A DNA stretch of 58,680 bases. Source: Candidatus Cloacimonadota bacterium (GTDB lineage: Bacteria; Cloacimonadota; Cloacimonadia; Cloacimonadales; JAMOQM01). A program made the position numbers and the translations under genes. Shown here piece by piece: positions 46,595 through 58,680 of the stretch. The DNA lies in NCBI GenBank assembly GCA_027064005.1, contig JAMOQM010000030.1:1-58680 (forward strand), read 5' to 3'. A model generated the notes under the pieces. It had not been told where the DNA came from, made no database searches, and saw nothing but the letters and a program-made list of their open reading frames with translations. The number at the start of each line of letters is the position of its first letter. The first letter of the stretch is position 1.

Positions 46595-46670
46595 GTGTAG
46601 TCATAAACTTTGATATTAAATTATTAGCAATTTATAAGCTAAAATTATGTCATTAAAAAAGGAGATAACT

Positions 46671-47282
46671 ATGATTAAGATTGGTAAAAAGGCACCTGAT
46701 TTTACAGCTCCGGCTTATTTTGATAACAAGTTCGGTCAGGTTAAACTTTCGGATTATATCGGAAAGTGGGTTGTATTATGTTTTTATCCCGGAGATTTCA
46801 CATTTGTTTGAGCAACCGAAGTTTCTGCAGTTGCAGAAAGAAATCTTGAGTTTGAAAAACTTGGAGTACAAGTACTTTCGGTTAGTGTAAACAGCGTCTT
46901 TGTTCATAAAATGTGGAACGAAAATGAACTGTCAAAAATGGTGGACGGCGGAATTCCATTTCCAATGTTAACAGATGGTGGCGGAACAATCGGAACAATG
47001 TACGGCGTTTATGATGAAGATGCCGGTGTTGAAATGAGAGGAAGATTCTTAATTGATCCGGACGGAATTGTGCAAGGTTATGAGGTTTTAGCACCGTCGG
47101 TAGGAAGAAATGTAGATGAAACCGTTAGACAAATAAAAGCTTTTCAGTTGGTTAGGAAATCAAAAGGAACCGAAGTAACGCCTTCCGGTTGGGAACCTGG
47201 TAAACTTACTTTGAAGCCGGGTCCTGAATTAGTCGGGAATGTTTGGAAAGTTTGGAAACCAAATATGAATTATAACAAATAA
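46671..47282 (+). CDS. prxU: Selenocysteine-containing peroxiredoxin (AhpC/Prx1 family, PrxU-like); UGA-Sec at codon 47
   Basis: ATG 46671 with the SD aggag. A single in-frame TGA at 46809-46811 falls in [14 protein letters not shown], the peroxidatic Cys position of the FVCPTE motif. The frame continues into the track ORF 46911..47282. 203 aa in total, with a SECIS-like hairpin 10 nt downstream of the TGA. Confidence 0.8.
46822..46839 (+). promoter_or_regulatory. Bacterial SECIS-like stem-loop for prxU
   Basis: tttctgc-aguu-gcagaaa: a 7-bp stem and a 4-nt loop containing G-U, beginning 10 nt after the UGA. This is comparable to the ~11-nt spacing of the E. coli fdhF SECIS. Confidence 0.55.
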
Positions 47283-54969: not shown

Positions 54970-56106
54970 ATGATTTACTTTGATAATGCTGCAACCTCTT
55001 TTCCAAAAGCTCCCGGAGTTGCGGAATCAATTTCCAAATTTATTTTAAATGATAGTGTTAATTCCGGTCGATCATCTTATCCGGCCTCACAAAGAACCGC
55101 CAGATTACTTTTCGATACTCGCGATAAATTAGCAGAATTACTAAATATTGAAGATAGTTCCGGAATTATTTTCACTGCAAATGCAACCGAATCATTAAAT
55201 ACCGTGATTTTTGGTACTTTAAATTCCGGAGATTTCGTTTTAACATCAAAAATGGAACATAATTCCGTGATGAGACCTTTAAGATATTTGGAATCAATAA
55301 ATACAATAAAATTGCTTCAATTCAATTCCAAAAAAGATTATTCTTTTGATTTGGAAGATTATAAACAAAAGTTAAAAATGAATCCTAAACTTGTCATTGT
55401 TACAGCTTGTTCAAATGTAACAGGAGCAATTTATCCTTTTTATGAAATGGCAAAATTAGCAAAGCAAAACGGAGCTTTATTTTGTTTAGATGCTTCTCAA
55501 TATATTGGAATGGACGAAATAGATGTTGAAAATTCAGAGATAGATTTTCTTTGTTTTTCCGGTCATAAAGGACTTTTAGGACCAATGGGAACCGGTGCTT
55601 TTTATATTAGGGAAGGTCTTGATATTCGTTCATTCAGATATGGAGGAACCGGAAGTAAATCTGATAAAGAATTCCAACCTGACTTTCTTCCTGACAAGTT
55701 TGAAAGCGGAACTATGAATTTGACGGGTATTTCCGGTTTGAATGCCGCCTTAGATTTCATCCAAAAAACTAAAATAAAAAATATTAGAAATAAGAAGAAA
55801 ACGCTTCTTAATTTTCTCATAAATGAATTAAAAAAAATAAAAAATATAGAATTATACTCACCTCTTGATATTGAGCATCAAATTGGTGTTTTATCGTTTA
55901 TCCCGAAAAATCTGAATATTTCAAATCTAACAAGGATTCTCGATAAAAAAGACATCGCGGTACGAATGGGTTTGCATTGTGCACCTTCAGCTCACAAAAT
56001 AATTGGTAGTTTTTCCAAAGGCGGAACGATTAGAATCAGCCCCGGATTTTTTACTACTGAAAATGAAGTTGAAGAGCTTATTAAAGTATTGCGAAATAAT
56101 ACCTAA
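54970..56106 (+). CDS. Class-V aminotransferase: cysteine desulfurase / selenocysteine lyase family protein
   Basis: 378 aa. PLP-lysine region FSGHKGLLGP, active-site Cys loop RMGLHCAPSAH, and a short N-terminus as in the selD-linked subfamily. Confidence 0.75.
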   Translation: MIYFDNAATSFPKAPGVAESISKFILNDSVNSGRSSYPASQRTARLLFDTRDKLAELLNIEDSSGIIFTANATESLNTVIFGTLNSGDFVLTSKMEHNSVMRPLRYLESINTIKLLQFNSKKDYSFDLEDYKQKLKMNPKLVIVTACSNVTGAIYPFYEMAKLAKQNGALFCLDASQYIGMDEIDVENSEIDFLCFSGHKGLLGPMGTGAFYIREGLDIRSFRYGGTGSKSDKEFQPDFLPDKFESGTMNLTGISGLNAALDFIQKTKIKNIRNKKKTLLNFLINELKKIKNIELYSPLDIEHQIGVLSFIPKNLNISNLTRILDKKDIAVRMGLHCAPSAHKIIGSFSKGGTIRISPGFFTTENEVEELIKVLRNNT

Positions 56107-56115
56107 GGAGGAAAA

Positions 56116-57150
56116 ATGAAAACAATAGAACTTACTAAATATACACGTTTTTCCGGTTGAGGAGCTAAACTCGGACCGGGAGTCCTAAATAAAGCTTTAT
56201 GTGGTTTGGAACAGCCAAATTATCCAAATTTAATTGGAGATTATCATAATTCGGAAGATGCAGGAATTTATAGAATTAATGACGAAACCGTTATTATTCA
56301 AACCGTAGATTTCTTTCCGCCGATTGTGAACGATCCTTTTGAATACGGTCAAATTGCAGCCGCAAATTCTCTCTCTGATATTTACGCGATGGGAGCAAAA
56401 CCAATTACCGCTCTCAGCATTGTATCTTTTCCAAAAAACAAGCTGAAAATTGAATATCTTAGAGAAATTCTTGCCGGTGGAATGGATAAATTGAAAGAAG
56501 CCAAAACCGCATTAGTTGGCGGACATAGTGTTGAAGATGATGAATTGAAATACGGATTATCAGTAACCGGAATTTCTCATCCAAATGATATTTGGAAAAA
56601 TAACGGCACAAAAGAAGGCGATATCATTATTATGACTAAAAAAATTGGTACCGGAATAATTAATACTGCTCTTCGTGCCGGATTTGCTTCGGAAGAATCA
56701 TTAAAAGAATCATCAAAACAAATGCGAGAATTGAATAAATATTCAGCTGATATTGCAAAGAAAATCGGTATTTCTTCTTGTACCGACGTAACCGGATTTG
56801 GTCTTATCGGCCATCTTTATGAGATGATTGATACCACAAATCTCAGTGCAATTCTTAATTTTGATGAGATTCCAATTCTCCCCGGAACAATTGATTATGC
56901 CCAAATGGCAATGATCCCGGAAGGCTCATACAACAATCGAGAATTTAGACAATCTTCTGTTAAAAATTACGATCAATTGTCTGATTTACAAATTGATTTG
57001 CTGTTTGACCCACAAACTTCCGGTGGATTACTCTTCTCAGTAAACGAAAATAAAGCCAACCTGCTTTTAAAAGAATTAATTGAAAATGGAATTGATGCTC
57101 ATATTATCGGTGAATTTGTCAAAGGAGATAATAAAATTGAAATTAAATGA
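56116..57150 (+). CDS. selD: Selenide, water dikinase (selenophosphate synthetase) SelD, itself a selenoprotein (UGA-Sec at codon 15)
   Basis: ATG 56116 with the SD aaggagg. An in-frame TGA at 56158-56160 lies in FSG-U-GAKLGPG, the Cys/Sec of the N-terminal glycine-rich loop (E. coli GCGCK). The track ORF 56206..57150 is the remainder. The gene ends with a genuine TGA stop at 57148-50. Confidence 0.9.
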
Positions 57151-57394
57151 TTATATCCTGACGTTTGAATCAACTCATAATGCTTTGGCTACTGAAAAAA
57201 TTCTTACAAAAAAGGATATTGAAGTTGAATTAATTCCTACTCCAAGAGAAATTTCTGCGGAATGTGGATTTACGCTTATTTTGGAAAAAATGGATTTACA
57301 AACAATTAAAGATAATACAAACCCTAAAATTTTAGGTGATATTTATATCATTATAAAAGAAGGTAAAAGGAAAAAATATGAGAAAGTTGATTGA
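57137..57394 (+). CDS. DUF3343-like small protein (putative Se/S carrier-associated)
   Basis: Probable TTG start at 57137 (SD aggag 9 nt upstream; overlaps the selD stop). YILTFESTHNALATEKIL...IPTPREISAECG fits the DUF3343 pattern usually found next to yedF. Confidence 0.55.
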   Translation: MKLNDYILTFESTHNALATEKILTKKDIEVELIPTPREISAECGFTLILEKMDLQTIKDNTNPKILGDIYIIIKEGKRKKYEKVD

Positions 57395-58010
57395 TTGTCG
57401 CGGAATGGCTTGCCCTCAACCGGTAGTTGAAACTAAAAAAATGTTAGATAAAAAAGAATCTAATCAATATGAATCTATTGTTGATAATAAAGCTGCAAGA
57501 GAAAATATTAAAAAATTCTGTAAAAGTTATGAAGCCGAGATTTCACAGATTATAGAAGAAAATGGTATTTATCGAATCTTCATCGAAACAAAAAATGATT
57601 TGGTTGTTAAAAATGATAAAGACGTTGATTTTAATTTATATCAATGTGAAATTCCGGAAATAAAAACAGGTAAACAAATAAAAAAAATATTCATTTCTAC
57701 AAATCAATTAGGTGTTGGTTCTGAAGAATTAGGTAAAAATCTGATGACTGGATTTATTTATACTTTGAATGAACTTGCGGTAAAACCTGAAATGATTTTA
57801 TTTATGAATTCCGGAGTTGAATTATGCCTAAAAAATGCACCTACTTTGAAAAGTTTGACTAAACTGTCCGAAAGCGGCGTAAAGATTCTCGTTTGCGGAA
57901 CTTGTTTGGATTACTATAATTATACTGCGGATTTGGGAGTTGGAAAAATTTCCAATATGTATGAAATAACAGAAAATTTGATGGATTCTAACTTTGTTCT
58001 GAAAATTTAG
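57378..58010 (+). CDS. yedF: Selenium-metabolism protein YedF (TusA/SirA-like N-domain + DsrE-like C-domain)
   Basis: 210 aa. N-terminal LIDCRGMACPQPV (TusA CPxP motif); glycine-rich NQLGVGSEELGKNLM; C-terminal VCGTCLDYY. Adjacent to selD. Confidence 0.75.
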   Translation: MRKLIDCRGMACPQPVVETKKMLDKKESNQYESIVDNKAARENIKKFCKSYEAEISQIIEENGIYRIFIETKNDLVVKNDKDVDFNLYQCEIPEIKTGKQIKKIFISTNQLGVGSEELGKNLMTGFIYTLNELAVKPEMILFMNSGVELCLKNAPTLKSLTKLSESGVKILVCGTCLDYYNYTADLGVGKISNMYEITENLMDSNFVLKI

Positions 58011-58680
58011 CCACCGATTTTATGAATAAACAGAAAAATAAAGAAAGAATATTTAACCACTGATAACACAGATAAACACGAACGAAGTTGTAGATCAAGC
58101 AGCTTGCTTGAGGTATTTTCCGATTGTACGAATTCGAAGAAAGATGATAACCTGATGATTGTCATTCCAGTGAAAAAAAATGATTGTCATTCCCGTGAAA
58201 ACGGGAATCTATTATCTTATTCGGAAAAATGACAACCGACCGGAAGACTAAAGAAAGACAAGATTTTAGCCACTGATAACACAGATGAACACGAACGGAG
58301 TTGTAGCTCAAGCAGCTTGCTTGAGGTATTTTTTCGATAGCACGAATTTGAAGAAAAACGATAACCGGATGATTGTCATTCCCGTGAAAACGGGAATCTA
58401 TTATCTTATTCGGAAAAATAACAACCGACCGGAAGACTAAAGAAAGAAAAGATTTAGCCACTGATAACACAGATGAACACGAACGGAGTTGTAGCTCAAG
58501 CAGCTTGCTTGAGGTATTTTCCGATTGTACAAATTTGAAGAAAAATGATCACCTGATGATTGTCATTCCTGTGAAAAAAAATGATTGTCATTCCCGTGAA
58601 AACGGGAATCTATTATCTTATTCGGAAAAATAACAACCGACCGGAAGACTAAAGAAAGAAAAGATTTAGCCACTGATAAC
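58011..58680. repeat. Tandem array of 188/212-bp units (at least 3 full units, truncated by the window end)
   Basis: Unit starts (agccactgataac) are at ~58055, 58268, 58456 and 58668, giving periods of 213, 188 and 212 nt. 58011-58054 looks like a truncated unit. Each unit has hairpin 1 (ctcaagca-gct-tgcttgag plus a T-run, e.g. 58307-58334) and hairpin 2 (attcccg-tgaaaa-cgggaat, e.g. 58378-58397). Long units carry an extra degenerate 25-nt copy (gtcattccNgtgaaaaaaaatgatt). Confidence 0.9.

Follow-up and report, generated by a model that had tools for sequence, protein, structure and literature searches.

A selD gene on a Cloacimonadota contig that very probably encodes a selenocysteine-containing selenide, water dikinase and is called too short

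The window considered here, a stretch of 58,680 nucleotides of contig JAMOQM010000030.1 from a Candidatus Cloacimonadota bacterium (assembly GCA_027064005.1), holds a gene for selenide, water dikinase (selD) whose 5′ end can be read in two ways. In the mechanical list of open reading frames (ORFs) the gene begins at a TTG codon at position 56206 and gives a product of 314 aa, whereas a start at the ATG lying 30 codons upstream, at 56116, takes the frame across a TGA at codon 15. The question raised by this locus is whether that TGA ends a short peptide or whether, as the original prediction held, it is read as selenocysteine (Sec), which would make SelD itself a selenoprotein and would return to the gene the 30 codons lost from the ORF track. 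We consider it very probable, on the evidence set out below, that positions 56116-57150 represent a complete SelD in which the catalytic residue of the N-terminal loop is a Sec encoded by UGA-15.

The structural part of the original prediction was borne out by the coordinates. The TGA at 56158-56160 lies in frame with ATG 56116, the track begins at TTG 56206 and hence 30 codons late, and the ATG stands 9 nt past the TAA (56104-56106) of the preceding cysteine desulfurase gene, behind a strong Shine-Dalgarno sequence, AAGGAGG, which overlaps this TAA, ends 4 nt before the ATG and recurs unchanged in a relative of 91% protein identity (L001/L002). Downstream, the frame is terminated by a TGA at 57148-57150. 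Translation of the whole interval gives MKTIELTKYTRFSG, then the TGA at codon 15, then GAKLGPGVLNKALCGLEQPNYP..., the residues after codon 15 beginning GAKLGPGVL. The start of selD is ATG 56116 and not TTG 56206, and the correct annotation is 56116-57150, a predicted selenoprotein of 344 aa with Sec (U) at residue 15. The main value of this result is practical, as selD is mis-called by the ORF track and also in the public collection of proteins, where the stored entries of the window (P0001) and of the 91% relative (P0002) are 314-aa fragments devoid of the active-site loop.

For the profile and structure comparisons of the 344-aa protein the TGA was read as Cys. In this form the protein matched the SelD equivalog model TIGR00476 with 369.9 bits (cutoff 125) over profile positions 2-310 of 311 and, as the match starts at profile position 2, the 5′ extension belongs to the family model; the read-through protein also scored 316.8 bits with NF002098 (cutoff 299), and the AIRS and AIRS_C domains (PF00586 and PF02769) are precomputed for the stored window ORF, P0001. 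End-to-end alignments of the read-through protein were obtained with the PDB entries for SelD of Aquifex aeolicus (2yye, 3.3e-71) and Escherichia coli (3u0o, 1.6e-67). The loop G14-U15-G16-A17-K18 is placed on G16-C17-G18-C19-K20 of the E. coli enzyme, U15 corresponding to C17 and K18 to K20, which agrees with the proposal that a Cys or Sec is followed here by a Lys three residues later, and the column of U15 falls on the Cys of the SGCAAK motif in the A. aeolicus entry (2yye), a residue which we take to be natively Sec. When Sec- and Cys-type SelD sequences were aligned together, U15 again stood on the Sec/Cys column of the family. Positions G14, C15, K18, L19, G20, P21, C29 and L31 were invariant in 30 aligned relatives, as were D48, D65, N84, D88 and D224, which in SelD structures take part in metal or ATP binding and all of which are present in the window protein.

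The closest full-length proteins in the databases share 57-60% identity with the window protein and, where named, come from Cloacimonadota or Spirochaetota (P0003-P0120; L088-L094). They read ...LTKYT(K/R)FSGCGAKLGP...LCGL.QP.YPNL..., and the window is identical there except for U in place of C. These Cys-type relatives carry TGT or TGC rather than TGA at this codon, so that gene callers predict them at full length. As the 5′ extension is kept in all the full-length relatives (FSGCGAKLGP...LCGL), they give no indication of an unconserved N-terminus or of a start at the internal site, either of which would have spoken for the shorter gene.

A UGA at this position is familiar from other SelD genes. 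Of the SelD genes of prokaryotes 19% encode Sec, and the site of this Sec does not vary (Mariotti et al. 2015, PMC4561486); among bacterial selenoproteins none are more widespread than FdhA and SelD (Zhang et al. 2006, PMC1794560), and a 2026 review is in agreement (PMC13188914). When one genome per species was scanned, 80 SelD loci were obtained; 72 distinct selD loci from other genomes, most of the loci fetched, have TGA at the same column (Desulfobacterota, Dehalococcoidia, Clostridia and others), at which 12 Cys-type loci have TGY and 118 Cys-type database proteins have C. With the Sec-type SelD of Haemophilus influenzae, Aquifex aeolicus, Clostridia and Deltaproteobacteria (PMC1794560, PMC4561486) the window gene shares the position of the UGA, the Lys at +3, the AIRS and AIRS_C fold and a predicted selenocysteine insertion sequence (SECIS) hairpin over the G-P-G codons, the loop of which lies about 16-20 nt past the UGA. 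It differs from them in its loop motif, which is F-S-G-U-G-A-K-L-G-P in the window and commonly G-A-G-U-A-S-K in Sec-type enzymes, in an upper SECIS stem of 4 bp where 6-7 bp are typical, and in an A-U pair where most Sec-type selD genes have U-A. E. coli SelD (3u0o) belongs to the same enzyme family but is Cys-type and lacks a SECIS. The window selD is an ordinary member of this well-known Sec-type class, and nothing about it is biologically new in kind.

Within the sub-group that shares the window's loop motif, the other sampled members are almost all Cys-type. A scan of metagenomes for the pattern F-x-G-TGA-G-A-K-L-G-P produced five loci, four of which were discarded as chance matches whose translation is not that of a SelD. 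The fifth, L087 (1326-1367 of SDBV01285123.1), is the sole other Sec-type F-x-G-U-G-A-K-L-G-P member of the sub-group in the metagenome collection; it reads MDDIKPVELTKYTKFAG-U-GAKLGPGTLDKALCGL... and resembles the Cys-type P0004 group, and its contig stops about 120 nt past the UGA.

If UGA-15 is to be read as Sec, a SECIS would be expected downstream of it, and folding from the UGA onward predicts a bacterial SECIS (bSECIS) of -9.0 kcal/mol. This consists of a 6-bp lower stem (56161-56166 with 56193-56198), an internal loop, and an upper stem of GGAC (56173-56176) with GUCC (56182-56185) enclosing the loop CGGGA (56177-56181); the upper stem starts 12 nt past the UGA, and the spacing from UGA to loop is 16 nt. 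The bSECIS model allows a loop of 3-9 nt, an upper stem of 4-16 bp and a UGA-loop distance of 16-37 nt, with a G in the first two loop positions and a minimum free energy of -7.5 kcal/mol or lower (PMC13188914), and the window hairpin lies within all four constraints and the energy limit, its loop being of 5 nt with G at position 2 and again at the next.

Comparison with other genes gives stronger evidence. When 70 Sec-type selD segments were aligned without gaps and in codon register (A2), almost every sequence had a hairpin over the G-P-G-(D) codons, and the window hairpin is found at that place. In the window's register (columns 14-19 with 25-30) 78.8% of the cells were paired, and in controls with the 3′ partner displaced by 1-3 columns this was 25-49%. 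Covariation is seen at pair 18-26, which is U-A in 43 sequences, A-U in 4 (one of them the window) and G-C in 3, besides other combinations, and a second register (columns 17-23 with 27-33, 75.1% of cells paired) is used by many sequences. A covariance model (R1) built from 67 Sec-type sequences, with the window, L001 and L087 left out, recognised 56158-56199 with 39.9 bits (E about 5.5e-9), which was the only strong match in the 58.7 kb (next best, 14.7 bits) and exceeded every Cys-type control in the homologous region (9.9-31.1 bits), although coding-sequence conservation enters the model too, so that the score reflects more than structure. No match was found in the window by Rfam at gathering thresholds, which counts neither for nor against a SECIS. 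The short ggac/gtcc stem at 56173-56185, which had been noted beforehand as weaker than the hairpin of prxU, is indeed so (4 bp as compared with 7 bp); it nevertheless sits at the SECIS position of the family, fits the bSECIS model and is recognised by R1.

Other foldings of the region were considered and set aside. In the 70 nt after the UGA two hairpins passed a check of stem, loop, loop G and spacing, namely GGAC-CGGGA-GUCC and AUAA-AGCU-UUAU (spacing 32), the latter of which was rejected, its stem being of A and U only and lying away from the conserved position of the family. A hairpin at 56201-56223 was likewise dismissed as a SECIS, since its loop lies 49 nt past the UGA, outside the range of 16-37 nt, and a single substitution in L001 is uncompensated. 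When upstream sequence is included, the minimum free energy structure is an alternative hairpin (56150-56161 with 56170-56182, -15.1 kcal/mol) that would bury the UGA; this was rejected as a functional element because the ribosome would enclose its 5′ arm while the UGA occupies the A site, and because similar pairing is predicted in 28 of the 72 Sec-type selD genes, where it probably arises from the CCGG palindromes of Gly and Pro codons. In the window the alternative joins UCCGGU, drawn from the UGA and the codons that immediately precede it, to ACCGGG in the 3′ part of the SECIS region, and CCGG palindromes are probably its origin here as well.

The mixed nature of the R1 score is one of several points which weigh against a reading of UGA-15 as Sec. 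The 4-bp upper stem and the 16-nt spacing are the exact lower limits of the bSECIS model, and the local hairpin energy of -4.6 kcal/mol places the window among the weakest tenth of the 72 Sec-type selD genes. At the same place the Cys-type relatives L088-L090 have a hairpin, CUAGGAC-CGUGU-GUCUUAG, that is equal or stronger (about -7 kcal/mol), and L014 has a similar one, from which it follows that a hairpin there is not specific to UGA decoding. As regards the machinery for Sec, no tRNA gene was found within the 58.7-kb window, and neither selA nor selB was found among the 23 of its about 48 genes that were scanned with NCBIfam or Pfam. Hairpin strength was abandoned as a means of telling the two types apart, for although the mean energy is -8.4 kcal/mol in Sec-type and -5.5 kcal/mol in Cys-type genes, the nearest Cys-type relatives surpass the window. 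A hairpin at the SECIS position is necessary for the Sec reading but alone does not discriminate Sec from Cys.

The hairpins of the Cys-type relatives are of some interest in themselves. Those of L088 (1904-1945), L090 (1488-1529) and L014 (3034-3075) have 7-8 bp and the loop CGUGU, placed 16 nt past the Cys codon; they satisfy the loop and spacing rules for a bSECIS and have the appearance of a SECIS that is either latent or a remnant. SECIS-like remnants of this kind, following Cys codons, have been described previously (PMC1794560).

With these points in mind, the explanations that compete with Sec can be weighed. The TGA might stand for a TGT or TGC that was misread in sequencing or assembly, and the gene would then be an ordinary Cys-type selD; in favour of this, Cys is found in all of the nearest full-length relatives, and a single base separates the two types. 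The window DNA occurs, however, in public runs from hydrothermal-vent and marine-sediment metagenomes, and contigs from four independent runs of four different studies which span 56029-56288 (depths of 61.7x, 9.4x, 15.1x and about 3x) all carry the TGA, with no difference between 56116 and 56205 while strain variants occur elsewhere in selD; the same TGA in the same context is present in the relative of 91% protein identity, for which there are two assemblies (L001 in ENA, L002 in Logan), and the probability that remains for an error is close to nil. A TGA acting as a true stop would leave a 14-aa peptide, or a truncated SelD translated from TTG 56206, and the gene would be a pseudogene or truncated variant, a view with which the existence of the mechanical ORF and the weakness of the SECIS stem are in keeping. 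Against this, the truncated form would be deprived of the glycine-rich loop with the catalytic Sec/Cys and the Lys, invariant in the 30 aligned relatives, and TTG 56206 lacks the Shine-Dalgarno sequence that ATG 56116 has in perfect form. When the window is compared with L001, four of codons 1-30 differ, all of them synonymously, and 131 of the other 315 codons differ, 104 synonymously and 27 non-synonymously, a pattern of purifying selection to either side of the TGA; the restriction to synonymous changes upstream of the TGA indicates that this part is translated and under purifying selection in frame, which argues strongly against a pseudogene or an internal start, and the TGA itself is kept. 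It also stands exactly on the Sec/Cys column, as in the 72 other selD genes, and we regard a true stop as highly unlikely.

The UGA could also be read through by something other than Sec, be it near-cognate decoding as Trp or Cys or a change of code in which UGA specifies Gly or Trp. UGA reassignment does occur in some low-GC uncultured lineages, and the lack of visible Sec machinery in the window, described above, would accord with it. Such a reading is opposed by the use of TGA in the 48 probable genes of the window (18,233 codons), of which seven, selD among them, are terminated by it; a simple scan found no SECIS-like hairpin at the required distance from the selD terminator. In-frame TGA occurs only twice in these codons, at U15 of SelD and U55 of PrxU, both known Sec positions, and normal termination at TGA in seven genes together with only two in-frame cases indicates that the genetic code is standard. 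Both in-frame TGAs stand at catalytic Cys/Sec positions of known selenoprotein families, and after each of them a hairpin lies at bSECIS distance. In the PrxU-type peroxiredoxin the TGA occupies the position of the peroxidatic Cys and is followed, at a spacing of 17 nt, by a classic 7-bp hairpin, UUUCUGC-AGUU-GCAGAAA; the ORF list keeps only the C-terminal 123 aa of this protein, from ATG 46911. As selB moreover adjoins the same gene cassette in relatives, decoding of UGA-15 as anything other than Sec appears very improbable. If Sec is inserted, the machinery, selA, selB and selC, the presence of which we infer, must be located elsewhere in the genome or among the about 25 unscanned ORFs of the window. 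The two genes mark this Cloacimonadota lineage, of marine-sediment and hydrothermal settings, as probably Sec-decoding, with at least two predicted selenoproteins on one contig.

The preferred reading, a full-length SelD with Sec at residue 15, can be put in terms of a mechanism. Translation would start at ATG 56116 behind the consensus Shine-Dalgarno sequence and, at UGA-15, the GGAC-CGGGA-GUCC hairpin on its 6-bp lower stem would recruit SelB-GTP-Sec-tRNA(Sec), so that Sec would be inserted instead of termination taking place. The Sec-type SelD so produced would, judging from its sequence, make selenophosphate from selenide and ATP, with selenium probably delivered by the co-transcribed desulfurase/Sec-lyase-like enzyme, the DUF3343 carrier and YedF, and full-length SelD would thereby depend on its own product. 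The remark in the original prediction that a Sec-type SelD depends on itself in this manner is correct but has long been established (PMC4561486, PMC1794560), and the maintenance by SelD of the Sec trait that it itself requires has been discussed explicitly (Zhang et al. 2006, PMC1794560).

Table 1. Positions of selD, its signals and the other genes discussed in the text
Feature	Position	Strand	Basis and remarks
selD (selenide, water dikinase)	56116..57150	+	344 aa; start ATG 56116; Sec predicted at residue 15
Shine-Dalgarno AAGGAGG for selD	56105..56111	+	sequence reading; same AAGGAGG in the 91% relative L001/L002
UGA codon for predicted Sec (U15)	56158..56160	+	equivalent to E. coli SelD Cys17 by alignment
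predicted bacterial SECIS	56161..56198	+	fold from the UGA onward, -9.0 kcal/mol
cysteine desulfurase family protein (EF2568 / SclA-like)	54970..56106	+	TIGR01977, 423.9 bits (cutoff 377)
DUF3343 / Se_S_carrier small protein	57137..57394	+	PF11823, 66.4 bits; begins at a TTG and shares 14 nt with the end of selD
YedF (TusA and DsrE-like domains)	57378..58010	+	TIGR03527, 198.5 bits (cutoff 110); PF01206, PF02635
PrxU-type peroxiredoxin	46647-47282	+	Sec predicted at residue 55, TGA 46809-46811; NF040737, 394.3 bits when read through

The genes around selD form a cassette in the order desulfurase-selD-DUF3343-yedF (Table 1), which is kept in L001, L088-L091, L093 and L094; the contig of L092 ends within the gene that precedes selD, and that gene bears no annotation. 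The DUF3343 gene also overlaps yedF, by 17 nt (57378-57394), and this overlap, with that of 14 nt between selD and the DUF3343 gene, suggests a translationally coupled operon. Both the place of the DUF3343 gene and its overlap with selD are as in the window in L001 and in the Cys-type relatives, which have the same four-gene cassette, and the Cloacimonadota-like members among them (L088-L090, L014) share the hairpin position as well. In the Cys-type relatives L088 and L089 selB lies directly downstream of the cassette, from which it would appear that these organisms still decode Sec despite a Cys-type SelD; the selB genes are found on the minus strand at 3719-5671 in L088 and 3659-5611 in L089 and encode GTP_EFTU and SelB winged-helix domains.

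The same four families, in the same order and with overlapping starts and stops, make up the selD-yedF-DUF3343-desulfurase neighbourhood known from TIGR03527 and from SclA of Enterococcus faecalis (cited in PMC13188914). In comparison with that neighbourhood the window desulfurase passes TIGR01977 but not the cutoff of the SclA exception model, NF040779 (299 bits, cutoff 525), so that selenocysteine lyase is a putative label for it; the enzyme is probably, as either a selenocysteine lyase or a desulfurase, the selenium donor for SelD. The selD of E. coli is presumably not part of a yedF/DUF3343 cassette.

The position of the window gene among mostly Cys-type relatives poses the question of whether its Sec is ancestral or regained. 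A neighbour-joining tree of 197 SelD sequences was used for Fitch parsimony of the Sec and Cys states; its sampling is biased, in that the database proteins of the clade in question are full-length gene calls and so Cys-type by construction, and within these limits a clade of 121 contained no Sec forms besides the window and its 91% relative L001, Cys-type Cloacimonadota were sister to these two, and Cys was assigned to every deeper node of the clade. Read literally, the tree would make the Sec of the window SelD a secondary gain from Cys rather than an ancestral state, and since the Cys-type sisters keep a SECIS-like hairpin, a single TGY-to-TGA change could restore Sec. No Cys-to-Sec events were found in SelD by Zhang et al. 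(2006, PMC1794560), and a true case would be without precedent as a Sec/Cys toggle that is kept reversible because the SECIS has been retained. We think such a gain rather unlikely, and because of the bias towards Cys-type calls the change derived by parsimony was not accepted as shown. That the sub-group includes at least one more Sec-type gene (L087) also weighs on the idea of a regain, and repeated loss of Sec to Cys would account equally well for the SECIS-like hairpins of the Cys forms. The evolutionary question which this sub-group offers is whether a hairpin retained in Cys forms makes the switch between Sec and Cys reversible.

As to the host, the best named matches of the DnaK encoded in the window are all from Cloacimonadota, with no more than 78% identity, and the GC content of the window is about 30%, which together point to a divergent, low-GC member of the Cloacimonadota; the public runs that contain its DNA place it in marine-sediment or hydrothermal settings. 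Downstream of yedF, from 58048 to the end of the window at 58680, about three tandem copies of a repeat of roughly 190-214 nt are found with 87-100% identity, each copy holding the hairpin ATTCCCGTGAAAACGGGAAT, and the ORFs that arise from these repeats (e.g., ...RFHGNDN..., on the minus strand) are spurious artefacts of the repeat.

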